Shown in pieces: positions 1 through 37,795 of a stretch of 64,000 nucleotides of DNA (position 1 is the stretch's first letter; each line of letters begins with the position of its first letter). The stretch covers positions 4,704,001-4,768,000 of the forward strand of contig CM000150.2 in assembly GCA_000004695.1 (NCBI GenBank), in the 5' to 3' direction. Made by a program: the position numbers and the translations under genes. The notes below the pieces were generated by a model. That model did no database searches. It was not told where the DNA came from and saw only the letters and a list, made by a program, of their open reading frames with translations. Source of the stretch: Dictyostelium discoideum (lineage: Eukaryota).

Positions 1-504
1 AAGTTTTTCAGATCTTTTGCTTTTTTGATGTATTCTAGAGTGGCCAATTTGTGCCATTTCTTTAGAAGGGAGCTGTATGATAGTGATTCATCTGTTAAAG
101 GATCTTCACTGTATATTTGATTGCAAATCCAAATCCAAATGTTGTGGAGGATAAGGGCCATTAGGTTTCTATATGCGAATGATCTGGTTAGATCATATTC
201 TATTGCTTTATAGTTCCATTCAAAGTATTCTTTGTGGAATCTGTCGTTGGCGTAATCTGCATTCACTTCTTGATCTTTTTTGGCTGTCGGTGATAATTTT
301 GGAGTTATTCTATTAATGAAATTGTTATTTTGCCTAATTCTTGTATGGTGCCAGTTTTTACCTTTGCCTGTGGTAATATAGATGAAATTTTTGAGTTTAT
401 TTATTTTTATGAATTGTTTTGTTTTCTTGCATGAGAAGAACAGGTGACCGTATGGGTCTTTGCTCATATCTTCTTTGCAGAGTGGGCATTGTTTGTTGTG
501 AAGG
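1..504 (-). CDS. Retrotransposon ORF2 C-terminal Cys-His zinc-knuckle segment. It is out of frame with the RT part and truncated by the window edge.
   Basis: My own translation of the minus strand from 504 down to 1 reads through with no stop. It contains LHNKQCPLCKEDMSKDPYGHLFFSCKK (C-x2-C-x10-H-x5-C). A third frame is used at 730..936, so the copy carries frameshifts. Confidence 0.55.
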
Positions 505-1052
505 TAGTTTATTGGAAGGCATCTGGCATGGAATCTAAACATTGTGTCTCTTGTTTTAGGGTCTTTTATCTTCAGTATGTTGTTGAAGAGTTGATTATAG
601 CTGTAGCCTCTTAAGTTTAGAGATGATTGGAATTCCGTTTTAGGGATGGTTGGATTTTGGTCTTGAATTGTGGTATACCATTCTGCCAGTGAAAGTGGTC
701 GTCCATTTTCGTTTTTTATGGATGTGAGATTATTGTTGAAGATTGCTTTTTTTATTCTTATTTTGTTCCATTCGTCTAAGTTTTCTTTTAGGTATCTGGA
801 TGTGAATTTGTTTTTTTGAATCTGATATTCCCAGCTTTTGTGATGAGATGAGTTTGTTTGTTTGGTTTCTAGTGCTAGGATGAACTGGTTTATGATCCAA
901 AGTTTCTGCGCCAGTTGTCTCAATTCTATATTCCAAATGTTCCAGCCCCCTACTTTTAGTGGGTATCTTGCTCTTTTGGTTCTCATTAAATTAATAACTT
1001 GAAATCCACTAGCATTTTTGTTGTTTGGTGCCGATAAAAACCATTCGACTAA

Positions 1053-3458
1053 TTAATTGATTTGGTTTAATTCCTCTTCCTTAAAGTTCTCTACATATGA
1101 ATAGTAGGTTAATTTAGAGAGTGCGAATGCTTTGAGGATGTTGGTTTTGGTTTTGATTGTTGAGTCAGTGGTTTTCCATAGTACTAAGGATGATCTTATT
1201 GTGTTTAATATTTCTGGCATTTTTCTTGTTATCCCTTTACCTGTGAAGAAGTATCCCAAGTATCTTTCTGGATTTGTAGATATTGGAATTCTTTGGTTGG
1301 TATTGTCTGGGTTGCCTATAAGAATTGATGAAGATTTGTCCATGTTAAGTTTTGAGGAAGTGGCTTTGCAAAATGAATTGAAGTGTTGTAGTACTAATTC
1401 AAGTTGTTGAGAGTCTGGGACCATTGAAGCCGAGTCGTCTGCAAAGCTTTGGAATTTCTCTCTGTGGTTGCTGTTGTTTAGAGGAAGGCCAGTAATTCGG
1501 TCATCTTGTAAAATTTTTCTAGCTAAAGCCTCTATTACAAGGACGAACAGGGTGGGTGATAGTGGATCTCCTTGTTTAACTCCTCTTTTGATCTCAAAGG
1601 GTATAGTAGTTCTACCATTAATTTCAATTCTTGCTTCAGATTTGGTGAGTAGATTCATTATCAGGTTGATTATATTGGTTGGAATGTTGATGTGTTGTAG
1701 TGATCTAAGTATTGAACCGTGTGAGATCGAGTCAAAAGCTTTTTCGAAATCATATAGTGTAATTATTCCGTTAATTCTTTTATCATTACAATAGTTGATT
1801 AATTCGTTCATTGATATGATATTATCTAGAATGAATCTGCCTGGTACGAAACCTTTTTGATTGTGGTTGATCACTTTCGTTAGTATTGGGATTATTCTAT
1901 TGTTTATTAGCTTTGAGTGGATTTTATATATACAGTTAGCCAGTGTAATTGGTCTTCTGTTTTTGATTAGTTCGGGGTCTCCCTTTTTAGGTATCGTGAT
2001 AATGAGGCCTTCTTTGTAATTTTTGCTAATTAGATGAGGATTTCTTAGAGTGTCGTTGAATGCTGAGGCCAGTATTGGAGCTAGTTTTTCTTTGTGTGTT
2101 ATGTAGAATAAGTTTGGAATTCCATCTGGACCTGGAGATTTGTGTGGGTTCAGTTGTTTTATTACTTCTAGGATCTCTTGTGAGGTGAATTCATTTTCAA
2201 GGTTGTCCCATGTTGAGTCCCTGGTCACTGTCCAATTTTCCAACATTTCGTAATGAGATGGTGGGTCATCTTCTTTGTAGTCATAAAGATTTGAGTAATA
2301 TTTTACGTATTCTTCTTCGATCAATTCCTGTTTGTTGATTGTTCTACCTTGTGCATCTTTTACTGCGTTGATGGTGAAATCATTGTGTCTTTTCTTGATT
2401 CTCGCGGAGATGTACTTGAGTGAGGTTTCTTCGCAATAGTTGTTCAATTCTTGTTTAAGTTGTTCTTCTCTTTTTTTAGATTCATTTATTGCTGAAAGGG
2501 TTGCGAAGGCTTGGTCTTTAAATTCTGTCTCTAGTAGGGAGATTAGATTTTTGATGTTTGCCTTATTGTTGTAGTCGTTTTGTTTTTGAAATTCGGTGTA
2601 TAGTTGTTTTATTTTGTTCAGTAAGCTGTTGAGTTGAGAGAAGGAAATAGAGTTATGGTTGGCTGACAGCTCCCTTGAATAATCGTTAAGTAGGAAGTCT
2701 ATTTTCTTAAGCATTATGCTTGAGAGGATTGAGGATTTTTTTAATCTCCATCTGCGCTTGTTCATCTGTATGTTGGGTAGAGTGAAAGTGGTTGATAGGA
2801 AGTTGTGATCTGATAGAGGTATGTCGTTAATTTTTGGGGGGATTAGGTTCCTTAGGTATAATTGGCTGTAGTTGATTAAGCTATTGTTAAGGTATATTCT
2901 GTCTAGTCTCCTTTCCAAGATTCTTGTGAGGTTATTGTTTGTGTTGTGTATCGTTCTTGAGAAGGTGGGTCTTTTATTTAGTTGGTCCATATCCATTAGG
3001 TTATTTGAAATTCTGATGGCTTCGATTACTGTGGCCATCTCATCTGGGGATTGTGTTGTCAAGTTGCCTTGGTCATCATTTGATGTGTGATTGTCATTGA
3101 AGTCTAAACAGTTGAAGTCTCCTGCTATGATGTCGATGTTTTTATTAGGGTTAGACGTTAGGTTGTGGTATTGGTTGTTGAAGTGTTTGTTTAGTGTTGA
3201 AGCTAGTGTTTTTCTTTTATCAGGTTGGGCCGGGGTGTATATGGCCAAGATTCTCGTTGTGGTATCTTTTATTAGAATGTCTGATATTATTAGTCTACCT
3301 TCTATTATGAATATTGGTGAGAGTTTTATGTTTTGGTTGTTGTGGTTTAGTATTCCTATTCCGTTGCCTCTGTTGGTTGCACTAATGATGGAGCCAGGAA
3401 ATAGCTGGTGTGCTTGTGTTGCGTCAGCATTGAGTTCATTGACTATGGTTAGTGCCAA
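1053..3458 (-). CDS. Retrotransposon ORF2 (apurinic-like endonuclease plus reverse transcriptase)
   Basis: An 801-aa ORF. It has an N-terminal APE-like region (IIAGDFN, LSDHNF) and central RT motifs (PKKGDPELIKNRRPITL, YDFEKAFDSISH, FADDSASMV). Confidence 0.85.
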   Translation of the reverse strand: MALTIVNELNADATQAHQLFPGSIISATNRGNGIGILNHNNQNIKLSPIFIIEGRLIISDILIKDTTTRILAIYTPAQPDKRKTLASTLNKHFNNQYHNLTSNPNKNIDIIAGDFNCLDFNDNHTSNDDQGNLTTQSPDEMATVIEAIRISNNLMDMDQLNKRPTFSRTIHNTNNNLTRILERRLDRIYLNNSLINYSQLYLRNLIPPKINDIPLSDHNFLSTTFTLPNIQMNKRRWRLKKSSILSSIMLKKIDFLLNDYSRELSANHNSISFSQLNSLLNKIKQLYTEFQKQNDYNNKANIKNLISLLETEFKDQAFATLSAINESKKREEQLKQELNNYCEETSLKYISARIKKRHNDFTINAVKDAQGRTINKQELIEEEYVKYYSNLYDYKEDDPPSHYEMLENWTVTRDSTWDNLENEFTSQEILEVIKQLNPHKSPGPDGIPNLFYITHKEKLAPILASAFNDTLRNPHLISKNYKEGLIITIPKKGDPELIKNRRPITLANCIYKIHSKLINNRIIPILTKVINHNQKGFVPGRFILDNIISMNELINYCNDKRINGIITLYDFEKAFDSISHGSILRSLQHINIPTNIINLIMNLLTKSEARIEINGRTTIPFEIKRGVKQGDPLSPTLFVLVIEALARKILQDDRITGLPLNNSNHREKFQSFADDSASMVPDSQQLELVLQHFNSFCKATSSKLNMDKSSSILIGNPDNTNQRIPISTNPERYLGYFFTGKGITRKMPEILNTIRSSLVLWKTTDSTIKTKTNILKAFALSKLTYYSYVENFKEEELNQIN

Positions 3459-3907
3459 TGAGTTTGGGGGGGATTGGGATTTGATAAAGTCTGTTTTGTT
3501 TTTGAAGGAGGTGTCAGTGCCCCAACCTCTGACATTCCATTGGTTGATTTTGATTACTACTATTATGAGATGATATCGATCTCCTCTTGGGAGTCGTATA
3601 GCTGCGGTTTGGATGGTGAAGGGTAGATACTCTCTATGAAGCTCTCAATGATTCCTTTACTTTCTTTTTTGACAGGTGTCTTAGGGGTGGATGGGATGTA
3701 AGGGTTGCTTCTGTTTATTGTTGGTGAGAGTTGGGTGACTTCATTGTTTGAGTGGATTTCCTCGTTCTTGCGTTTATGTGATGGAGGGATGTTTAGTGTC
3801 TTCTCTCTGTTTTCCGAGGATGAATGGATGTTATTGCTCGTTTTGTTGGCATTGTCTTTTTGGATGGCGTTGGATGTTGTGGTAGTGGTTGTGGTGGGTT
3901 TAACAGA

Positions 3908-4813
3908 TTAAGATTCTGCTGGGTTTTTGGGGGGAAGAGGTTGAGATGACTTTTTTGCTTGGGCTTTTTTCTCTTGTGTTGATTGTTTTTCAGACTGATT
4001 GTTTGCTGGGTTGTTTGTTTGTTGTTGTGGTTTTGGTTGAGAGGATTTGATTGCTATCCTGTTTTGGGTGTTAGGAGGATCTGTCATCTCATCTTCTAAT
4101 GGTTCCTCCGTGTTGTTTGTCTCTACTTTCTTGTTTTTCTTTTGTGAGGAGTAGGTTTTGGTGGCCGTTCTGATGGTAAAGTTTGCGATTTCTGTAATGT
4201 GTTGGCCAGATTTCATTTGATCGCCTATTTTGCATTCTATTAGACCGAATACTATGAGGTGGTCGGTGGAGTATATAGTATTGTATATTGCATAGGGTAT
4301 TTCTTCTGCAAAGGCAGTTTTGATGAGGGCGTCCACTATTCCTGCCTTTTCTCTGGGAATTCTTACTCTTCCTGTGAGGACGTGGAAGTCTCTACTGGAG
4401 GTGATGAAGGTTCCCAATTTGCTTCTATCTCTAATGATATTTAGGAGAGATTGTTCGTTTTTAATCATCAGGTGGATCATTTTTCTAGTTCCTTTGCCTA
4501 TGTATATCTTGTCGAATGGGATATCGTAGTTTGAGAGTGTTTTTCTCATTTCTTCTAACCCCTTGAGATCCATTTTGGGGAATTCGAGTGTAATTGGGTA
4601 GAATCCGTTGTTCTTCTCATAGGTTGAGAGCGCAGTCATGTTCAATATGGTCTCGCAGTATTTGGAGATGTCTTTGAGGCCTATTGATAGTTTGGGGTAG
4701 GTCTCCTTTATCTCTGCTGTTTTTGTGGAGAATTCCTTAATGAAGTTCTCCGATGCCTCGTCCATATGGGTGGAGGGGTTGGCCATTTTAGCCGCGTCTG
4801 CGTAGGAATTCAT
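3908..4813 (-). CDS. Retrotransposon ORF1 protein
   Basis: A 301-aa ORF lies immediately 5' of the APE/RT ORF on the same strand. Its tail is basic and Q/N-rich, typical of non-LTR ORF1. The six-frame track supports it. Confidence 0.55.
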   Translation of the reverse strand: MNSYADAAKMANPSTHMDEASENFIKEFSTKTAEIKETYPKLSIGLKDISKYCETILNMTALSTYEKNNGFYPITLEFPKMDLKGLEEMRKTLSNYDIPFDKIYIGKGTRKMIHLMIKNEQSLLNIIRDRSKLGTFITSSRDFHVLTGRVRIPREKAGIVDALIKTAFAEEIPYAIYNTIYSTDHLIVFGLIECKIGDQMKSGQHITEIANFTIRTATKTYSSQKKNKKVETNNTEEPLEDEMTDPPNTQNRIAIKSSQPKPQQQTNNPANNQSEKQSTQEKKAQAKKSSQPLPPKNPAES

Positions 4814-5017
4814 CTCGATGGGATTCCTTTGAATCGGCGATTTGGTATGTTAGATCTGTAGATCGTGGGATTGGTGATTTTTTTTGAAAAATTGGTTAAA
4901 ATTGACCGAGATTAAAGATAGAAAAGGATGAATTACTTTTCACGTGTATCTTGTATCCTCTTGATCGCGGTACGGTTTTTTTTTACATGGATTTCTTAAT
5001 ATTTTTAAACCATTAAA

Positions 5018-5028
5018 GGTTTCGAACC
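5018..5028 (-). promoter_or_regulatory. ex-B box (extra B-box) downstream of the tRNA gene
   Basis: GGTTCGAAACC lies on the tRNA strand about 25-35 bp past the tRNA 3' end. Dictyostelium tRNA genes commonly carry such an external B box. Confidence 0.5.
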
Positions 5029-5051
5029 TGCGATCCTTCTTTTCATTTAAA

Positions 5052-5123
5052 AGGCTCCAATGAGGATCGAACTCATGACCTCTTCCTTACTAGGGAAGCG
5101 CAATACCACTATGCTATGGAGCC
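5052..5123 (-). tRNA. tRNA-Thr (anticodon AGU)
   Basis: The reverse complement is GGCTCCATAGCATAGTGGTATTGCGCTTCCCTAGTAAGGAAGAGGTCATGAGTTCGATCCTCATTGGAGCC. It has a 7-bp acceptor stem, a 5-bp anticodon stem, loop CT-AGT-AA, a TTCGATC T-loop, and A and B boxes. No intron. Confidence 0.85.
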
Positions 5124-5163
5124 ATTTCTGAAATTATAATATTTAATGAAAGATCCAGTCCGT

Positions 5164-5167
<4 letters not shown>

Positions 5168-5208
<41 letters not shown>

Positions 5209-5375
5209 CATTAAGTATCAAATCAAAGCAACGGCCAGAAGAACAAAATAAATTAGACTCACTAATCTCGCTAAAGCTATTACAATTTAGCAGACAATGG
5301 AACTCACCTCTTCACGCAATAGAACTTCCTAAACATCTCAAAAAATACAATAATTCACTCAGTACTTTCTATAAA
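5168..5375 (-). mobile_element. Possible 3' remnant (oligo-A tail plus about 170 bp) of a TRE5-type retroelement upstream of the tRNA
   Basis: On the tRNA (minus) strand an oligo(A) run of about 37 nt ends 44 bp upstream of the tRNA 5' end. Behind it is a segment of non-extreme base composition. This matches the roughly 48 bp upstream, orientation-specific TRE5 geometry. I cannot verify the sequence identity without a reference. Confidence 0.25.
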
Positions 5376-5378
5376 TAA

Positions 5379-5429
<51 letters not shown>

Positions 5430-5739
5430 AAAAAAAAAAAAAACTGTGGGACCCCAGTTTATTCAGAAATTTTCCGAATTTTAATCTTTTTAAGAAAAAT
5501 TTTAAAAATTTGAAGAAAATTAAATGGAAATTCACAACAACACCACAATTTTTAAGCAACACAAATGCCTACAAAAAATAAGCGAAATTGTGGATAAAAC
5601 TCAATTAAAAAAAAAACAATTCAAATACGTCATAAACATCAATCACGAACCAGACGATAAAATAAAAAAAGATTTAGAAAAAAGTTTGGACAAAAAAGAT
5701 GTTTTAATCAAAAGTAATAATACAATTCAAAATTCGAAA

Positions 5740-5789
<50 letters not shown>

Positions 5790-6294
5790 TAAACCAACCC
5801 CTCTTTTAGAGACCCTGTAAAAAAAAAAAAAAAATAAAATAAAATGAGATCTAACATCTCAAGGAGAAGCAAATAATAATTGCGTTATCCAATTCAAAAA
5901 AAAAAAAAGTCCGTAATTTTTTATTAAAGACTTTTCTTGGATAATGCAATTTAAAAAATTACGGACTTTTTTTTTATTATTTTTTTATTATTTTTTTTAT
6001 TTAAATAAAAGATAAAGTCCATTATAATTGTATTAACATTTTTAATTAAAATAAATAAAAACCTCTGATGTATATAAAATAAAATTATAAAATAAAATGA
6101 AAAAAAAAGATAAAAAAATGAATATTTAGATAAATAAAAAAATTGTAAAAAAAAAATAGGAATGAAAATTTGTTTAGATAAAGTAAATTTGGTTAAATAA
6201 AAGCTAGCTAGAAGGTTGAATAAAGTTTTTTTTTTTTATTTTAAAGTATAGGAAATTTTACACGTAAAAAAAGGACATACAATCCTGTATTTTA

Positions 6295-6456
6295 TTAACT
6301 TTCATTTTCGCTTTCATTTTCGCTTTCATTATCGCTTTCATTTTTTTGATTTCCATCAATTTCACTATTACTATTTTTTTTTTTATTATTATTATCTTTT
6401 TCTCTTTCTTGATTACTATTGCTATTATCATTATCATTATCACCATCATTATCGTT

Positions 6457-6503
<47 letters not shown>

Positions 6504-7059
6504 TATTATTTTTATTATTTTTATTTTTATTTGAAAAAGCACCAGCACAACCTTTACAACCACAACTGGAACATTCTAAAATTGTTCCTTTAGTCAAATC
6601 CTTTTTAGGCACTCTACAAATACAGATATGGCTTAAATCTTGAATACATTTAAGACAACAAAGTCTTTCATATCCAGGTTTTTTCCATTTTGCAATTAAA
6701 TTCTTATCTGCATAACCTTCTGTCAAACAAAATTCATATAATTCTCTTGAGATTTCTTTGTTTTTATAAAATTTTTCATATACATATCTTGATCTTTGAT
6801 GATGAATTCTAAATATTGGCCAATTTACTTCATTTTTACGTTTACCTTCGTATGGGCTTGCTTCGACTGTATAAAAAAAAAAATGAAAAATAAAATAATA
6901 AAAATTAATATATGTGTTAATAAATCAAATTAAAAAAGGAATTGTATAATAAAGTAGTTAATTACCTTCTCTCATTTTTATATCAAATTCATCCAATGTC
7001 GGTGATATAATATCCCATCCTCTAGGATATTTCTTTTTGGATGTTTTTATTTTTGGCAT
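6295..7059 (-). CDS. bud31: BUD31/G10 pre-mRNA splicing factor homolog (2 exons, intron 6870..6965)
   Basis: Exon 1 (7059..6966) reads [31 protein letters not shown], then a GTAAT donor. Exon 2 reads ...[70 protein letters not shown]...CICRVPK...CSSCGCKGC. It is collinear with human BUD31. A long D/N-rich C-terminal tail follows. Confidence 0.85.
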
Positions 7060-8272
7060 TACTTTATGCTGAGAAATATTTAATTACCAAAATAAAAAAT
7101 AAAAAAAAATAAAAAAAATTTCGAAATTTTTAGGGGTTTTTTTTTTTTTTTTTTTTTTTTTATTTGTTTTTTTTTTATTTTTCACCAAAAAGATTAAGAA
7201 ATCCAACAAAAAAGATTTAGAAATTGCACAATTAAATAAAAAATGTAAAACATTTATGGTAAAGATTCAAAAAAAATAAAATAAAATAAAAAATAAAAAT
7301 ATTTGTTTTTCTCAACACTTATTTTTGGTTTCAATTTCCAAAATAAAAAATTTATAAGTTTTATTATGGTATATATATAGAAAATCAAACTAATTTTTTT
7401 TTTTTTTTTCACATAATTTCTATTCATGACATTTTATATCTATTTTACTTATTTGAGCATCCAGATGAGGTAAGTCATTTAAATATATCCAACAAAATAA
7501 TAACAATTAGTAATCAAAAAATAAAAGTAAAACTCTTTTGGTAAAAAAAAAAAAAAAAAAAAAAAAAAATTATTATAACAATAAAAAAAAAATATTATAA
7601 TAAAAAATATTTAATATAACCAATTACTATTATCAAATTATTTTTTTTTTATTTTTTTTTTTTATTAACTCCCAATTTAATTATACAAATAATTTGTTAT
7701 TTTTACTTTTTTTTTTTTTTTTAATTTTTTTTTATTTCTTTTTTTTAAAATTTTTAGTTGTTGCTATAATAAATTTTTATTATTATAACGAAATTTTACC
7801 TGTTTAAAATCAGATTACTGCCCCACACTCCCACATTTTATTTTTTTTTTTAATTTTTTTTAATTTTTTTAATTTTTTTTTAATTTTTTTTTTTACACCC
7901 AACTGGTGAGATATTTATTTTTAATTTTGTAGGCTGGTGTCAAAAAAAAAAAAAAATAAAAAAAAAACAAAAAAAAACAAAAAATTTAAAATAGTATGAC
8001 ATTAACTTATTTTCAGACTGGTATATGATTTTTTTTTTGTTTTTTTTTTTGTTTTTTATTTTTAAAAAATATTGTATAGAAAAAAAAAAAAAAAAAAACT
8101 TTTCAAAGCGATCAAAAAAAAAAATATAAATTAATATTTTTTTTTTTTTTATTTTTTTATTTTTTCTAAACCATCAACCACTGTCAAATAAAATTAATTA
8201 ATTAATTAATATAAATAAATATCTAATTTTTTTTTTTTTTTTTCAAAAAATATCTAAATACAATATAATAAA

Positions 8273-9103
8273 ATGAGCTCACAAAATACACCATCAGCTA
8301 CATCACCAACTATTGAACCACAAAATACTAATAATAATAATAATGAATCACAAACCACTCAAGTAGCAGCACCAGCAAATACATGCGTACCAAATTGTAA
8401 TAGTTGTACATCACCAAGTGTTACCAATTCCATTGAGATTGAACAATTGATTGCAAATAATCATGCATGGTCAACTAGAATTAAACAAGAGGATCCAGGA
8501 TTCTTTGCTCATTTAGCTCAAGCACAAAAACCACGTTTCCTTTGGATTGGTTGCTCAGATTCTCGTGTACCAGCTGAACGTTTAACCGGTTTAGAAAGTG
8601 GTCAAATCTTTGTACATCGTAATGTTGCCAATTTAGTGATTCACACCGACTTGAATTGTTTATCAGTACTCCAATATGCCGTTGAAGTTTTACAAGTTGA
8701 ACATATCATCGTTTGTGGTCACTATGGTTGTGGTGGTGTTGCAGCATCTTATGACAATCCAGAGTTGGGTCTTATCAATAATTGGTTACTCCATATTAGA
8801 GATCTCACTTTCAAACATGCCGAATTAATCGAAATGACTAAATCAAATAGAAAACGTTTATTATCTACCCTTTGTGAATTAAATGTCGTCGAACAATGTA
8901 ACAATTTGGGTAACACAACCATTATGCAATCTGCTTGGAAAAAAGGTCAAAATGTTAAAATCCATGGTTGGATCTATGGTATCCATGATGGTTATCTCCG
9001 TGATTTAGGTGTTTCCGCTTCATCTCGTGAAACTTTAGAATTAAATTATAAAAATGCTATTCTTAAATTAAAAGATAATTGTTCATTAGGTGATAGTAAT
9101 TAA
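8273..9103 (+). CDS. Beta-class carbonic anhydrase
   Basis: Contains the CSDSRVP and HYGCGGV zinc-ligand motifs of beta-CAs. A single 276-aa exon with an N-terminal low-complexity region. Confidence 0.9.
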
Positions 9104-9591
9104 AAAATATATATATACTTGATAATAAATTTAAAAAAATATAAAAAAAAAAAGAAATAATGTAAAAAATAATTCACAAAAAAAAACAAAAAAAAAAAAG
9201 TAATAAAAAAAAGTAATAAAAAAAAAAAAAGAATTAAAAAAAAAAGAATTAAAAAAAAAAAGTTTGGAAAAACGAATTAATTATGTGTCGTGTATCGTTT
9301 TTTCATGGAATTTTTCAAATATTTTCACAAATATTTATTTTTAATTTTTATTTTTTTATTTTTTTTTGTTTTTTTTTTTTTTTTTATTTTTTTTTTAAAT
9401 TAAATTTTAAATTTTTTAATTTCATTTTTTTTTTTTAAATTAAAACACACACATACAATAAATTTTTTAGTTTTGGAATAATATAAAAAAGAAAAAAAAA
9501 AAAACAAACATATAATATAATAATAAAATAATATAGAAAACTTCCATAAAAATAATAAATTAAAACTTTGATTAATAAAAAAAAAAAAAAA

Positions 9592-10219
9592 ATGCAAGTA
9601 GATAGAGATTTAGATAAAGTTGGTGTTCATTGTGCCATAAAAGATTGTAATTTATTAGGTATGTGTTAATGAAATATTAAAAAAAAATAAAAAAATGGGA
9701 ATGAAAATATGAAAATGAAAATAAAATAGAGATATAATATAATAATATATTAATAAATCAAAAATTAATTTTTTTTTTTTTTTTTTAGATTTTTTACCAT
9801 TTATATGCCAAGGTTGTCAAGGTCAATTTTGTTTAGAACATAAAGAAGAAAAAGAACATAAATGTCCGACTCCAATTGTAAAGATTGGTGGAACCACAGT
9901 TACATGTGATAAATGTGAGAGTATATTACCAGTACCAGTAAATTGTTTTGAAAAGGATATATTATCAATGCACCTAAGAAAAGGTTGCCCTAAAAAGACA
10001 ACAGTAAATCAACATAAATGTTCATTTTGTCCAAAGATGGAATCAATTAAAATAGTTTGCCCAAATTGTAAAAATAATTTTTGTATAAAACATAGATTTG
10101 AACGTGACCATAAATGTAAACCTAGAGTTAATCCTCCCCTTCAACAAACTATTTCACCACATTTACAAAATTTATTATCTCAACTTAGAAATTCAAAACC
10201 TGTCAAAACAAATAGTTAA
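9592..10219 (+). CDS. AN1-type zinc finger protein with two zf-AN1 domains (2 exons, intron 9659..9788)
   Basis: Exon 1 (9592..9658) plus exon 2 give [35 protein letters not shown] and [33 protein letters not shown]. Both fit the AN1 C-x2-C...C-x2-C...H...H-x-C spacing. A GTATGT donor and a T-rich AG acceptor keep the frame. Confidence 0.75.
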
Positions 10220-10773
10220 ATATAAATAATAATAATAATAATAATAATGATATGATCAATCCTTATGAATTCATATAAAAACTGTACAAATAAATTCTCA
10301 TAAATAAACATATGACATGCGCCACAATTTTTTCTTTTTTAAATTATAATTTTTTTCTTTTAATTATTAATTATTTATAAATTCTTTATTTATTTATTTC
10401 TATTTTTCGTTTCCAATTATATTATTTTCATTTTATTATTATTATTTTTTAATTTTAAATCATATTTAAAATAACTTTTTTTAAACAACTATTAATAAAT
10501 AAAACTAAATATAAATTATCCAAAAAAAAAAAAAAAAAAAAGAAAATATATTAAACTTAATTAAGTAAATAAATTAAAAAGAGTATTATTAAAATTTTTT
10601 ATTAATTTTTATTTAGAAATGTAAATGTGTGTAATTTGTTTAAATGATTATTTATTAAAATAATAAAGTGGGTATAAATTTTTTTTTTTTTTTTTTTTTT
10701 TATATTTCATAAACCAAATATTTAATTTAAATTAAAATATTATTAAAGAAATAGAAAAATAATATATATAAAA

Positions 10774-11046
10774 ATGACACTTTTTAGTATTTATAATTTT
10801 TAATTTTAATTTATTATTATATTTAATATTTTATATTAATATTTTTTTATTATTATAATTTTTATAGATTCCATTTCATCTATTTCAAACTCGACTGGTA
10901 TCTCTAAAGAAAGTTTAATTGGAAATTTAAATAGTAATGGAATTGCAACTGGTAATATTAGTGTTTCATGGTTAGGTGGATTTGATGGTTGCGGTGGTTG
11001 CGGCGGTGGTTGTGGAAAAAACGATTTTTTATATTCATCTTTATAA
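10774..11046 (+). CDS. HssA/B-like (hssA/2C/7E family) small Gly/Cys-rich protein; divergent copy with an altered C-terminus
   Basis: Exon 1 is ATGACACTTTTTA (MTLF). An 81-nt AT-rich intron runs GT...TATAG. Exon 2 reads [59 protein letters not shown]. It is preceded by the same promoter block as the copies at 19.4-22.8 kb. Confidence 0.6.
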
Positions 11047-12416
11047 ACACTTGGTTTATTATTTATTTTCGTCATTTTAATCATTTTTGTTTTATTATTT
11101 ATTTTCATCATTTTATAAAAATTATAAAATTAATGGTAAAAAATCAAATGTTATCCAATTTGATTCATCATTCTTTGTTAAATTATCACCATCATCACCA
11201 TCAGTTCTACATAATGGAGGTATAATGGCCAGGTGGATGAATGGAACAAAAAGTACGGGTATACCCGAACCACTAACAGAATCAACGGCGGCACAATTAG
11301 TTTCCAACTTTTTGTTTTAGTTTACATAATAAGACCATAACATAACGCATACCAAACTCTGGTGGATTACCAAAGAAACTAACCAATGGTGTATACATTG
11401 ATTCAACTGACTGTGACTATATTTGAAGAATATCAAGCATTCATGATATTTTGAATGATTACTAGAGGATACAAGATTCACATAGTTTTTCAAGAATTGC
11501 AGTGGTTGGATCATGATTTTATGATTTCAAAATACGTTCAAAATTTAAATGAACATCCATGAAAATTCTTCTTTTTTTCTTTTGAATCTTTATCTTTATT
11601 ACTATTATTATTATTAATTATTATTATTATTTTTATTATTATTAATATTTCCAAAATAATTTTTTTTTTTAATTTATTTTTGGTTGTTTTATTTTTTAGG
11701 GAATAAAATAAAGTAGTTGGAGTAAAAAAAAAAAAATAATTCGTGATGATCATTAAATGGTTCATACAGATATAAAACGCACACTATTAGTTGAAAATGA
11801 TGGTAGATTCTTTATTGGTGATTTTGGAAGAGCAAAGAAAAAAAATAAAATTAAAAAAAATTATAGTTTAAATAAAAAATAAAACAATATTATATTGTAT
11901 AAGGAAAATTTTAAATAAAAATAATAATAAAAATAAAATAGTAATAATATATATATGTTTTTTTTCAACCTTTAGTTCAATAGACTTTATTATTAAATAT
12001 TTTTTAAATTATTTAATTTGATTAAATTTAATCATGGGTAATTTAATTTAACTCTTAAAGTTTTACTTCTCTAGTTAATTTTGAAGACCATGGACACCAG
12101 AAGCAACTATTGAATTATATATTTATTTATTTATAAAAATTATAATTATATGTTAATCAAATTGTATTTTTTAATTTTTCAAAATTATATTTAATTAAAT
12201 ACATACCCTGGGAGGAAAGCAATTATTTATTGTTTTATTATAATAATATTAATAATATTCATCATCCCAACAGTTTAAAAAACACTCAAGTAATTGATTT
12301 TTTTTTATTAATATTATTTTTTTAAACAATAGAAAAAAATAAATTTATTTCATTCTCAAATAATTATTCAATTGTAAATAACAAATTTAAATAAAATAAA
12401 AAAATAAAATATTAAA

Positions 12417-12768
12417 ATGAAATTATTATTAGTATTATTATCTCTTCTTTTAACATTTTCATTATTGGTACAATCTGAAACAGCCTATTTTGGTTTAAAA
12501 ACCCATGGATACCAAAATGAATTTATTTTCAAATTAACTGATTCAGGAAAAATTAAAAAAGCCAGAGATATTTTGTCTGGAGGTGAGTATAAAATTTATA
12601 AAACATTGATAATAACAATAATAAACATCATTTTTTATATAAATACATATGCTAACAATATTTAATATAGAGGAAACTGATGAAGTTCATGTAATGGGTA
12701 GAATTAAAAAGACAAATGAAGACTATAATCCACGTAAATATTCTTTTGATTTTTTATTTAAAATTTAA
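12417..12768 (+). CDS. Small secreted hypothetical protein (signal peptide; at least 2 exons; a third exon ending near 12918 is possible)
   Basis: Exon 1 (12417..12582) has a clear signal peptide, MKLLLVLLSLLLTFSLLVQS. A GTGAGT donor and an ATATAG acceptor lead to exon 2 from 12671. The downstream structure is uncertain. Confidence 0.35.
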
Positions 12769-13650
12769 TTATTATTTAATTATTTTATTAATTTCATTTC
12801 ATCACTTTTAGATTTTTCCTTTATTATTGACCCAGATACAGTCACATTTTTTGAGATGGCTATTGAAGTTTGTGATGCCCCAACTGATTATGTTCAAGAC
12901 CAGAGAAATCCAATGTAGCCTCATCTGAATGCATGGCGAAGATCCATTGTATCCTGAAAGACCAATTAATTCCAATGTGGCTTCATCTGTTGCAAATCGA
13001 TTTTCATTTTTTAAATCTTATAATAATCTATTAAAAATTAATAAAATTTCTTTTTTTTTAACATATTTTAATATTATATATTAATTTTTAATAAATTTTA
13101 TTATTAGTATTATTTTTTGATAATATTAAAATAATAATACTAATAATAAAATTTATTAAAAACTAATAATATTTTTTGATTATTTTTTATAATAAATAAG
13201 GAATAAAATATTTAAAAAAAATAAAAATTCATATATTTTAATATTTTTTATTTAAATATTTATTGTACACCCATTATTTTTTATCATTTTATTATAGTTT
13301 TTAATATACAATATCATATATTATATTACTATAGTTTAATGTTTTAAAAAATGAGAAATTACAATAGTAAAATTTCTCACAATATGGTAAATCAATAAAT
13401 TTTTTATAATTTAATGACAAATTAATATTCAATTTTAATTAAATAATATTAGATTTTATCAATTTTTAATTTATTAAAAAATATTTTTATTTTGGCCAGA
13501 TAATTTAATAATAAAGTGTGATTAATTATTAATTAGAAATTGATATTAGTTTGTTAAAAATTTTATTAAATCATAATATTGTTTCTTAAAATATGAGTTT
13601 TTGTGGTAGTTTAATTTCTCACAAAATAGTAAAATTTCTTAGGTTTTTTT

Positions 13651-13730: not shown

Positions 13731-13811
13731 AATCAATTGATATTAAAAATTTGAAATCACTGAAAAAAAAAAAATAATAACCACATTAAAGATCGGTCGT
13801 GGTTAGATCTC

Positions 13812-13851
<40 letters not shown>

Positions 13852-14090
13852 TATTAACAGTGTGCTGGTAAAAATTAATTTATTTGAAATTTTTTTTTAT
13901 TTGTTTTAATTCTAATTAAGACAGAGGAGAGTTAATGAGGTTGAAAAAATAGAAATAAAAACAAAAATAAAAATAATTACTACATCAAAAATAAAAAAAA
14001 AAAAAAGTAGAATTAAAGAAAACTAAATTTTTATTGGAGTAATTATTTTATTTAAGAAAATAAAAAAATATTATCTCATGATTAAATATT

Positions 14091-15009
14091 TTATTTATCA
14101 GATATAACTTCTATAGAAAATAAATGGATTGAAAATCTTGAGATTGGTAATAGAATTACTGAGAAATCCTTTCCTACATCAAATTTTGGAGTTTCAAATA
14201 CAAATCTATCATACAATTGATAACTTCTATTTTGATGGAATGTTAAACGAGTAACCAAGTTTTTACTTGATCCTTGAGTATGAAAACTGTATGTTTTATT
14301 TAAATAATAAAGGTCATCAGATCCAGAGGCAAGAATTCTTCTAATTTTATTAAGTTCATATCCATTTGAGTTTGTTTTTATTACTTTTAGTTGAAAGTTA
14401 TTTGGTATATATTCATAGGTTTTATTTAAGTGATATGAATAATAAATTCTGATTTTAACTTGATTGTTTGGCTTGGATAACAAAAAGCTTTGAATGAAGG
14501 CTATATCATAATTTGGTTGATTTTCAGTGGCAACAAAAGTTATATCAACAGCATCATCTGAAACATACTTTCTATAGGGATAAGATTGAACGTAAATTCC
14601 ATAGCATCCTGTTAAAAAATCAAAAGATTGTTGAGGTCTTTCATAAGGCAACGTCCAAACTACACCTTTTTTAATATTTCTACCAACATCTGCAAAGTCA
14701 CGAATAATAATTGTTCCACTATCACCTTTCTGTGTATTATCTCCACGTTCCCAACTGATTCTTTCACCTGTTGAGGATGTCGAGGTTGGTTTATAAACTA
14801 CGTCACGGTCATATCTTGTAACATCTGAGTACAAGAATAGTGAAATAGTTCCGCTCCAATCTGGTACTGGAAATTTATCATTACAACGCCAATTTCCATT
14901 TGAATTTGTGGCACATCTATTATCATTTTGAATTAATATTTGTGGTAAAATAATCATATAATTTGAAAACACCTATTTAACATGTAATCATAATAAAGAA
15001 TTAGAAAAG

Positions 15010-20874: not shown

Positions 20875-20938
<64 letters not shown>

Positions 20939-22537: not shown

Positions 22538-22605
<68 letters not shown>

Positions 22606-37538: not shown

Positions 37539-37592
<54 letters not shown>

Positions 37593-37795
37593 ACAAAAAA
37601 AAAAAAAAATAGTTAAGAAAATAAAAATAGTTTGGTTAAATAAAAAAAAAAATTTAAAAGGATTAGACTTCAATGTCAACAATCCATCAAATCATTTTTT
37701 TTTTTTTTTTTTTAATTCTATAATTCCTACCTAAATCCCCAAACGAATAGTTAAATATTTATATAAAAAGTAAGAGTATGTTGTGATATGAATAT

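Follow-up and report, generated by a model that had tools for sequence, protein, structure and literature searches.

The targeting of Dictyostelium tRNA genes by TRE3 and TRE5 retroelements has been characterized since 1989, and TRE5-A, formerly called DRE, has the structure AB-ORF1-ORF2-BC; its 3′ UTR, in which a duplicated B-module precedes the C-module, is absent in TRE5-B. Across the D. discoideum genome, 61% of tRNA genes have at least one TRE and 13% have both types (PMC5006619). TRE5-A integrates 47 ± 3 bp upstream of tRNA genes (PMC5391098), TRE5 elements point their 5′ ends towards the tRNA (PMC3159450, PMC5391098), and truncated TRE5-A copies are the majority (102 copies, 5 of them full-length; PMC5006619). 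The 3′ B-module is reported to be absent in TRE5-B and TRE5-C (PMC3159450), and TRE5-C is known only from 3′ fragments with a C-module (PMC3159450, PMC5006619). TRE3 elements share the orientation of the tRNA (PMC5911963), and TRE3-A lies 14–228 bp, typically 40–150 bp, downstream of tRNA genes (PMC5006619, PMC5911963). The ORF2 of TRE3-A uses the –1 frame and overlaps the preceding ORF1 by 79 nt (PMC5911963), and the published consensus lengths are 5229 bp for TRE3-A, 5279 bp for TRE3-B and 4734 bp for TRE3-C (PMC5006619).

Here we analyze a 64 kb window of D. discoideum DNA (the whole stretch from 4,704,001 to 4,768,000 of contig CM000150.2, 64,000 nucleotides; all coordinates are window positions unless a locus is named). 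It is highly probable that one tRNA-Thr(AGU) gene near the start of the window was hit independently by two classes of tRNA-gene-targeted LINE, a full-length TRE3-A downstream and a 5′-truncated TRE5-A-type element upstream. The preliminary description of this DNA had already claimed double targeting of one tRNA gene, TRE3 downstream and TRE5 upstream, and in this it was right.

Results

The tRNA gene and its B boxes

The common target of both retroelements has the following features:

5052–5123, minus strand: tRNA-Thr(AGU) gene
5063–5073: internal B box of tRNA-Thr, AGTTCGATCCT
5018–5028, minus strand: external B box (ex-B), GGTTCGAAACC, whose start lies 24 nt downstream from the 3′ end of the tRNA

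The tRNA gene, placed at the same coordinates and on the same strand in the preliminary description, is real: ARAGORN calls it (anticodon AGT) and Rfam RF00005 matches it with 66.4 bits (E = 7e-14). The ex-B box that had been proposed downstream of it is borne out as well, since GGTTCGAAACC at 5018–5028 is the sole exact match to the B-box pattern GGTTCGAANCC in the 64 kb window. Its position at +24 falls in the region where other Dictyostelium tRNA genes in the loci that we fetched have their ex-B box; those of D. discoideum carry GGTTCGATTCC at +29/+30, or degenerate forms there.

A truncated TRE5 element lies upstream of the tRNA gene

Upstream of the tRNA gene we found a single insert with the 3′ modules of a TRE5-A-type element in order on the plus strand, the tRNA being on the other strand:

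5157–5171, plus strand: TRE5 target-site duplication, left copy, (A)GTCCGTAATTTTTT
5172–5203, plus strand: extra T residues (n = 32) at the 5′ junction of the insert, inside the T38 run 5166–5203
5205–5375, plus strand: last 57 codons of ORF2 (TRE5-A-type), TAA stop at 5373–5375
5376–5443, plus strand: A-rich spacer (A47 + T + A15) that separates ORF2 from the 3′ B-module, collinear with the A-run at L011 9266–9304
5444–5740, plus strand: 3′ B-module (TRE5-A-type), which holds a duplicated ORF1 start
5741–5787, plus strand: A47 spacer before the C-module
5788–5895, plus strand: C-module (TRE5-A-type)
5896–5908, plus strand: oligo(A) tail of the fragment, A13
5908–5922, plus strand: TRE5 target-site duplication, right copy, first A ambiguous with the tail

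The target-site duplication AGTCCGTAATTTTTT occurs exactly twice in plus orientation, as 14–15 bp around the whole insert, and the 15-mer is found in that orientation only at 5157 and 5908 of the whole window. The insert starts at 5172, 48 bp from tRNA nucleotide 1 (5123). This distance agrees with the published 47 ± 3 bp. The truncated 5′ end faces the tRNA, as the orientation rule of TRE5 elements demands, an orientation also found in four TRE5 loci that we fetched (L010, L011, L012 and L013). About 690 nt are kept from the 3′ end, with the A-module and ORF1 missing and hardly any of ORF2 left; tested for the A-module promoter, ORF1 and ORF2 of a complete element, the fragment proves 5′-truncated and non-autonomous. 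The ORF at 5524–5820 is a pseudo-start, the duplicated ORF1 start within the 3′ B-module. We found no other copies of 5205–5375 in the window, and RNA folding of 5205–5385 gave no signal (z = –0.7).

The upstream fragment resembles TRE5-A

To place the fragment within the TRE5 family, we compared it with TRE5 copies at other loci. The one full-length TRE5-A-type copy among those obtained, an AB-ORF1-ORF2-BC element at L011, comes from another strain; 5205–5907 is collinear on the plus strand with 5097–5788 of this element at 81% identity overall. The translation of 5205–5375 is 79% identical to residues 1002–1057 of the 1059 in the ORF2 of this element (P0242) and only 43% identical to the TRE5-B-like P0237, while at the nucleotide level the segment is 96% identical to L010 10446–10616 and 83% to L011 9090–9260, all on the plus strand. 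The 3′ B-module is 85% identical to both the 3′ B-module (9306–9601) and the 5′ B-module (4324–4595) of L011, and the C-module is 87% identical in the TRE5-A comparison and 85–89% identical across the C-modules in L001, L010, L011 and L013. The 3′-terminal hairpin of the C-module is conserved, with the same fold as in the L010 and L011 copies, and T15, C26, A35 and C38 (numbered backwards from the 3′ terminus), the residues that were mutated in published work (PMC3159450), are present and lie in predicted stems. Based on this architecture and on these published point-mutation positions, rather than on alignment to a TRE5-A sequence labeled by its authors, we assign the fragment to the TRE5-A type.

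We consider it unlikely that the fragment belongs instead to TRE5-C or to an undescribed TRE5 sublineage. It is 13–19% diverged from the L011 copy, its ORF2 end is 96% identical to an L010 fragment that lacks the B-module, and 96% identity between two fragments favors lineage divergence over decay; TRE5-C, moreover, is known only as 3′ fragments with a C-module (PMC3159450, PMC5006619). In contrast, the fragment carries a 3′ B-module, which TRE5-B and TRE5-C are reported to be without (PMC3159450), and its C-module is TRE5-A-like both in the hairpin and in the terminal 54 nt, where it has 2 differences from TRE5-A-type copies. A clearly different C-module variant at L012, with 75% identity and a weaker hairpin, is a better fit to the description of TRE5-C. 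As a TRE5-A-type element, the fragment may still belong to a diverged sublineage, judging from its 81–87% identity to the full-length copy and 96% identity to the L010 ORF2 end.

A T tract lies at the 5′ junction of the TRE5 insertion

Between the left duplication copy and the ORF2 sequence lies a run of T residues (5166–5203) that is T38 in the window and T31 in L002, a near-identical assembly. When aligned with TRE5 reference copies, the tract has no counterpart at the matching position. The tract is, as we infer its origin, junction filler of the TRE5 insertion. That it is a tail remnant of an older minus-strand retroelement, or target DNA that was there before the insertion, seems improbable. 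[quoted passage not shown]

If the T tract is junction filler, it could have arisen by second-strand (twin) priming, in which the nicked target, through its T6 3′ end, would prime on a long A-run of the TRE5-A RNA. We regard two readings as possible, though doubtful: one in which the 32–38 T residues come from such priming, and one in which the fragment comes from an undescribed sublineage that bears B- and C-modules (~15% diverged from canonical TRE5-A, 96% identical between independent fragments). A T tract made by twin priming, if true, would be a junction type undescribed for the TRE5 family.

A full-length LINE assigned to TRE3-A lies downstream of the tRNA gene

The other side of the tRNA gene holds the TRE3-like LINE that the preliminary description had seen running off the window start:

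4985–4999, minus strand: TRE3-A target-site duplication, 5′ copy, TTAAGAAATCCATGT on the minus strand
1–4984, minus strand: non-LTR retrotransposon assigned to TRE3-A, same orientation as the tRNA, 5′ end at 4984
3908–4813, minus strand: TRE3-A ORF1, 301 aa after CAA>TAA at 3910–3908
1–3644, minus strand: TRE3-A ORF2 frame; APE about 2805–3542, RT about 1251–1994, zinc finger about 428–530

The element begins at 4984, which places it 67 bp away from the 3′ end of the tRNA (5052) and 33 bp beyond the ex-B box, and its duplicated target begins 52 bp from the tRNA. The element runs past the window start, so that its final 272 bp (46 codons, 3′ UTR and A28) lie outside; we read the 3′ end and the second duplication copy in L002, which gives a body of 5228 bp followed by an A28 tail. 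The duplication is a perfect 15 bp whose second copy comes directly after the tail (L002 1490–1504), and the 15-mer is found at only two places in L002. The window is 99.3–99.8% identical to contig JBTAPE010000039.1 of assembly GCA_054883475.1. The distances from element to tRNA that the preliminary description wanted measured are 67 bp for TRE3-A and 48 bp for the TRE5 insert, and the target-site duplications that it proposed looking for flank both (15 bp and 14–15 bp, respectively).

Two intact copies stand in tandem in L001, a locus where the TRE3 element likewise has the orientation of the tRNA. The element of the window matches them over 4986 bp with 99.1% and 98.1% identity, and its ORF2 has 100% identity to a protein of D. 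discoideum. We identify it as TRE3-A by architecture, published length and copy abundance, and not by alignment to an author-labeled TRE3-A. It is very unlikely to be TRE3-B or another TRE3: the length of TRE3-B is close (5279 bp) and the comparison was made without a labeled reference sequence, but the body of 5228 bp is to be set against 5229 bp for TRE3-A (PMC5006619), its ORF2 falls in the most populous cluster (79 members), which fits TRE3-A as the most abundant TRE3, and a distinct TRE3 relative exists separately at 58% amino-acid and 67% nucleotide identity. At the locus of this 58%-identical relative (L015), we sought clean element ends and a tRNA and found neither.

Nonsense substitutions inactivate both TRE3-A ORFs

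Both minus-strand ORFs of the preliminary description (3908–4813 and 1053–3458) exist. The original ORF1 frame runs on to 3566, with a stop at 3563–3565, and is 416–417 aa in intact copies. In the second ORF, Pfam RVT_1 matches at 1e-34, while the match to Exo_endo_phos (APE) is weak, covering profile positions 2–225 with a score below the Pfam cut-off. A Cys/His zinc-finger motif (CPLC...H...C) can be read in the ORF2 translation, although no Pfam model matched it; this places the motif inside the window, although the zinc-knuckle end had been thought to run off it, and what falls outside is limited to the last 46 codons, the 3′ UTR and the tail. ORF2 is in the –1 frame relative to ORF1 with a 79-nt overlap, in this copy and in intact copies alike.

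The sole interruption of ORF2 is AAA>TAA at 1055–1053, where two intact copies have AAA. Past this codon the frame continues uninterrupted through 350 codons as far as window position 3 (the translation of 3–1052 is stop-free), and alignment to the two intact copies shows no indel in the coding part. The copy is dead through one nonsense substitution per ORF (CAA>TAA in ORF1, AAA>TAA in ORF2); it is without the capacity to encode its proteins because of the nonsense substitution in each. The preliminary description had also called the copy probably dead, from an ORF2 split over at least 3 frames; the verdict stands, but there are no frameshifts. With its 99% identity to intact copies, this is a young copy.

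The strand of the upstream element

The preliminary description had a TRE5-type element in the right place, but not its strand, module or extent. It took the long T-run for an oligo(A) tail on the strand of the tRNA, 44 bp upstream; the run is there, 42 bp away, but the sequence that adjoins it matches TRE5 on the plus strand. Alignment to the full-length element rules out 5205–5375 as the C-module, this segment being ORF2 coding sequence, and the fragment extends to 5908, so that the B- and C-modules lie beyond the 5445 once given as the end of the locus. A minus-strand TRE5 whose C-module and oligo(A) tail would stop about 44 bp upstream of the tRNA can be dismissed: although a T38 run (A38 when read on the minus strand) begins 42 bp upstream and adjoins TRE5-related sequence, every TRE5 match of 5205–5907 is on the plus strand, 5205–5375 translates on that strand to the ORF2 C-terminus with its stop codon, the B-module, C-module and A13 tail follow there, the duplication encloses 5172–5907, and published TRE5 elements have the 5′ end towards the tRNA (PMC3159450, PMC5391098).

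Discussion

The two insertions suggest the following history. A TRE3-A would have integrated 67 bp downstream from this tRNA gene in the same orientation, making the 15-bp duplication, and a nonsense substitution in each ORF would then have inactivated the young copy. A TRE5-A-type element would have integrated 48 bp upstream in the opposite orientation; its reverse transcription or 5′ joining probably halted about 690 nt from the 3′ end, so that the insert holds the end of ORF2 (57 codons) with the 3′ B-module, C-module and tail, plus ~32 T at the junction. From published work on these families, we infer that target-primed reverse transcription may have been aimed at DNA-bound RNA polymerase III factors, with TRE5-A guided to TFIIIB/TFIIIC via the ORF1 protein and TRE3 to positions downstream of B boxes. 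We sought an empty site via the neighboring carbonic-anhydrase gene and did not find one among one large assembly, which has the same insertions, and 1-kb contigs.

A doubly targeted tRNA gene is already known and common in the genome of D. discoideum, and the locus has little significance outside annotation. It is a clean worked example, with exact duplications, canonical distances and canonical orientations for both insertions. It also carries a lesson for annotation: a homopolymer beside a truncated LINE can pass for the tail of that LINE.

When compared with described systems, the downstream element resembles TRE3-A in lying downstream of a tRNA gene whose orientation it shares, in its body length (5228 bp vs 5229 bp published), and in having ORF1 and an overlapping ORF2 (APE-RT-zinc finger) in the –1 frame, an oligo(A) tail and a target-site duplication. 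It is unlike TRE3-A in having one nonsense substitution per ORF and a 5′ UTR with a deletion of 2 bp, and its 67 bp is at the short end compared to the usual ~100 bp. The upstream fragment shares with TRE5-A its position 48 bp upstream with the 5′ end facing the tRNA, a 3′ part in which the ORF2 end is followed by an A-run, the B-module, a second A-run, the C-module and oligo(A), and the terminal hairpin of the C-module; it is also 5′-truncated, with additional nucleotides at its 5′ junction and a duplicated target site, all of which are described as typical of TRE5-A. In contrast to TRE5-A, the fragment is 13–19% diverged from the full-length copy compared, its junction filler, a homopolymer of about 32 T, is unusually long, and its C-module lacks about 25 nt at the 5′ edge. 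Like TRE5-C, it is a 3′ fragment with a C-module upstream of a tRNA gene; however, TRE5-C is reported without the 3′ B-module that this fragment has, and the TRE5-C C-module is 78% identical to that of TRE5-A in the last 87 nt and has a weaker hairpin, whereas the hairpin found here is of the TRE5-A type.

The tRNA-Thr gene lies between two retroelement insertions

The tRNA-Thr gene has a TRE3-A LINE on its downstream side (1..4984, minus strand) and a 5'-truncated TRE5-A fragment on its upstream side (5172..5908, plus strand). The preliminary description had called the gene doubly targeted, and this held, as did its placement of an external B (ex-B) box:

5052..5123, minus strand: tRNA-Thr(AGT) gene (ARAGORN; Rfam tRNA model, 66.4 bits)
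5063..5073: internal B box of tRNA-Thr
5018..5028, tRNA's strand: ex-B box GGTTCGAAACC, the sole exact GGTTCGAANCC match in 64 kb

The ex-B box starts 24 nt past the tRNA 3' end. Among the fetched loci, further D. discoideum tRNA genes carry GGTTCGATTCC at +29/+30 or degenerate forms in the same position. The window has a G+C content of 24%, and A/T homopolymers of at least 45 nt are frequent across it (5376..5443, 5741..5787 and many sites such as 20880..20930, 22550..22600 and 37545..37600), so a homopolymer beside a repeat only weakly indicates a retroelement tail.

We used L002, a near-identical assembly of the same locus (GCA_054883475.1, contig JBTAPE010000039.1; 99.3-99.8% identity to the window), only for the part of the downstream element (272 bp) that precedes the window start; L002 position 1778 is window position 1, and homopolymer lengths are the main difference between the two. 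When window 5166..5520 is compared to L002 6943..7290, homopolymers differ (T38 versus T31, A47 versus A21) and small changes are densely clustered right after the A-run (CTGTGGGACCCCAG versus CCTGGGAACCCAAG); these resemble noise from sequencing or assembly behind long homopolymers and not real divergence.

The downstream element is a TRE3-A copy with two nonsense substitutions

Read on the minus strand from 4984 to 1, the downstream element shares 99.1% and 98.1% identity with two intact copies arranged in tandem in a fetched Dictyostelium locus, L001. Its 3' end, read in L002, is ...CCAATATT followed by A28. The 15-mer TTAAGAAATCCATGT is present directly after the A28 tail (L002) and directly before the element's first base (window 4999..4985, minus strand), with no third site within L002. 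Because the 15-mer is at both element edges and nowhere else in L002, we conclude that the insertion has its two ends and a perfect target-site duplication of 15 bp; we predict that the empty TRE3 site would have a single ACATGGATTTCTTAA.

The element body is 5228 bp, as compared to published lengths of 5229 bp for TRE3-A, 5279 bp for TRE3-B and 4734 bp for TRE3-C (PMC5006619 Table 1). ORF2 matches RVT_1 (1e-34), has a full-length but sub-threshold match to Exo_endo_phos, and carries a CPLC...H...C motif. Its frame is –1 relative to ORF1 with a 79-nt overlap, in agreement with the –1 frameshift described in TRE3-A (PMC5911963), and the 90% cluster of ORF2 has 79 members. We call the element TRE3-A based on length, architecture and abundance, and not on an author-labelled sequence. 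In L001, the two intact full-length TRE3-A copies (2613..13310) follow one another in head-to-tail order downstream of a single tRNA. Each has a short target-site duplication of its own (TAAGAGATC and ATAATGCAT), with insertion sites approximately 32 bp apart; this pair is the same target used repeatedly.

The copy in the window is dead via two nonsense substitutions. In ORF1, CAA>TAA at 3910..3908 leaves 301 aa as compared to 416-417 aa, and in ORF2 the codon at 1055..1053 is TAA where the intact copies have AAA; the resulting 801-aa ORF (1053..3458) matches a D. discoideum protein at 100% identity. After the ORF2 stop, the same frame is open for 350 codons to window position 3. The coding region has zero indels compared to both intact copies, and the sole window-specific indel is a 2-bp deletion in the 5' UTR (~4869). 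Thus, contrary to the first view, ORF2 is not broken into three or more frames between 1053 and 504; ORFs extending beyond the source are absent from the ORF listing, and this is probably why it showed only out-of-frame ORFs in that stretch. The zinc-finger motif (about 428..530) lies within the window, although the zinc-knuckle end had been placed off it.

The upstream element is a 5'-truncated TRE5-A fragment

A TRE5 reference was reached by an indirect route. The intact TRE3-A ORF2 was searched exhaustively, and cluster look-up then gave Dictyostelium ORF2 proteins at 33-37% identity; a homologue search with one of these led to D. discoideum proteins whose loci were fetched. In one such locus, L011, from another strain, a full-length element begins 48 bp from an opposite-strand tRNA-Asp and consists of two ~200-bp A-modules, an A-run, a B-module with the start codon of ORF1, then ORF1 and ORF2, an A-run, another B-module with 98.8% identity to the first, a further A-run, a C-module of 130 bp and a tail. 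TRE5-A is defined by the structure AB-ORF1-ORF2-BC, and the C-module hairpin residues mutated in the same study (T15, C26, A35 and C38 from the 3' end; PMC3159450) are all present, in predicted stems. Window 5205..5907, plus strand, aligns to positions 5097..5788 of the L011 element:

5205..5375, plus strand: last 57 codons of ORF2 including the TAA stop (protein 79% identical to residues 1002-1057 of 1059)
5376..5443, plus strand: A-run spacer
5444..5740, plus strand: 3' B-module (85% identity to both B-modules)
5741..5787, plus strand: A47
5788..5895, plus strand: C-module
5896..5908, plus strand: A13 tail

The stretch 5205..5375, previously read as a C-module, is therefore coding sequence from the end of ORF2 (43% protein identity to a TRE5-B-like ORF2). 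The duplicated ORF1 start in the B-module is the ORF at 5524..5820, and the element reaches 463 bp past position 5445, where the preliminary description had ended it.

AGTCCGTAATTTTTT in plus orientation has exactly two sites in the window, 5157 and 5908, which flank the insert. Since these copies bracket it, the insert starts at 5172, leaving 48 bp to tRNA nucleotide 1, and its truncated 5' end points to the tRNA. The predicted empty TRE5 site is ...CCAGTCCGTAATTTTTTATTAAAG... with T6. Positions 5908..5967 contain a perfect inverted repeat of 15 bp (AGTCCGTAATTTTTT, 5908..5922; AAAAAATTACGGACT, 5953..5967; 30-nt loop), followed by T9; as its left arm is the TRE5-duplicated sequence, the ancestral tRNA upstream region had a hairpin ~35-95 bp from the tRNA.

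The T-run at 5166..5203 (T38 in the window, T31 in L002) had been taken for an oligo(A) tail on the tRNA's strand, which it is not; the geometry thought to be expected of TRE5 runs opposite to the actual one. The first six T are part of the target duplication, and the other 32, at the junction of the plus-strand insert, lie between the duplication and the truncation point without counterpart in reference copies. The tract could have arisen by slippage expansion of T6, by untemplated addition, or because the T-rich end of the top strand primed on one of the long A-runs in the element.

The fragment differs from the L011 copy by 13-19%. A separate fragment in locus L010, without a B-module, shares 96% identity with its ORF2 end, and this sequence identity suggests that it is a member of a sublineage rather than a decayed copy. 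We consider it improbable that the fragment is TRE5-C, or belongs to an undescribed TRE5 sublineage, rather than being TRE5-A: its B-module and TRE5-A-type hairpin argue against TRE5-C, and a C-module variant in locus L012 (75% identity, weaker hairpin) is closer to the TRE5-C description.

Other TRE5 copies were seen in the fetched loci. The L012 variant (7885..7939; 75% identity to the TRE5-A type over the last 87 nt) is the end of a full-length TRE5-type element from another isolate, a candidate TRE5-C-like lineage with intact ORFs. In L010, a TRE5-B-like element (4170..9457) passes from its ORF2 stop codon directly to an oligo(A) tail, without B- or C-module; downstream of it, a tRNA-like remnant (9725..9795), uncalled by ARAGORN, lies inside a repetitive 'TTTAAA'-rich stretch. 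L001 has three C-module-only TRE5 fragments with tails in series (13769..14203, minus strand); the closest tRNA gene called there is over 1 kb away.

Both insertions fit the published targeting rules

Based on the literature, both TRE3-A and TRE5-A would have inserted by target-primed reverse transcription. TRE3 elements insert 40-150 bp downstream of a tRNA gene and with the tRNA's orientation, downstream of an internal or external B box (PMC5911963). The TRE3-A copy, in the same orientation as the tRNA and 67 bp downstream of it, fits this geometry; its start lies 78 bp beyond the internal B box and 33 bp beyond the ex-B box. TRE5-A inserts 47 ± 3 bp away, strictly with its 5' end facing the tRNA 5' end, and 5' deletions are frequent, with extra 5'-junction nucleotides and target-site duplications also reported (PMC3159450, PMC5391098); it requires an intact B box, and in vitro binding of its ORF1 protein to TFIIIB subunits has been reported (PMC5006619, PMC5911963). 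The 48-bp distance, orientation and 5' truncation of the upstream fragment follow this rule, and the orientation is common to all four fetched full-length TRE5 loci and to a C-module-only fragment beside tRNA-Ser in L011. Taken together, the doubly targeted tRNA-Thr locus is real, although several details of its first reading were in error, and it is ordinary, known biology: 61% of D. discoideum tRNA genes have a TRE and 13% have both kinds (PMC5006619).
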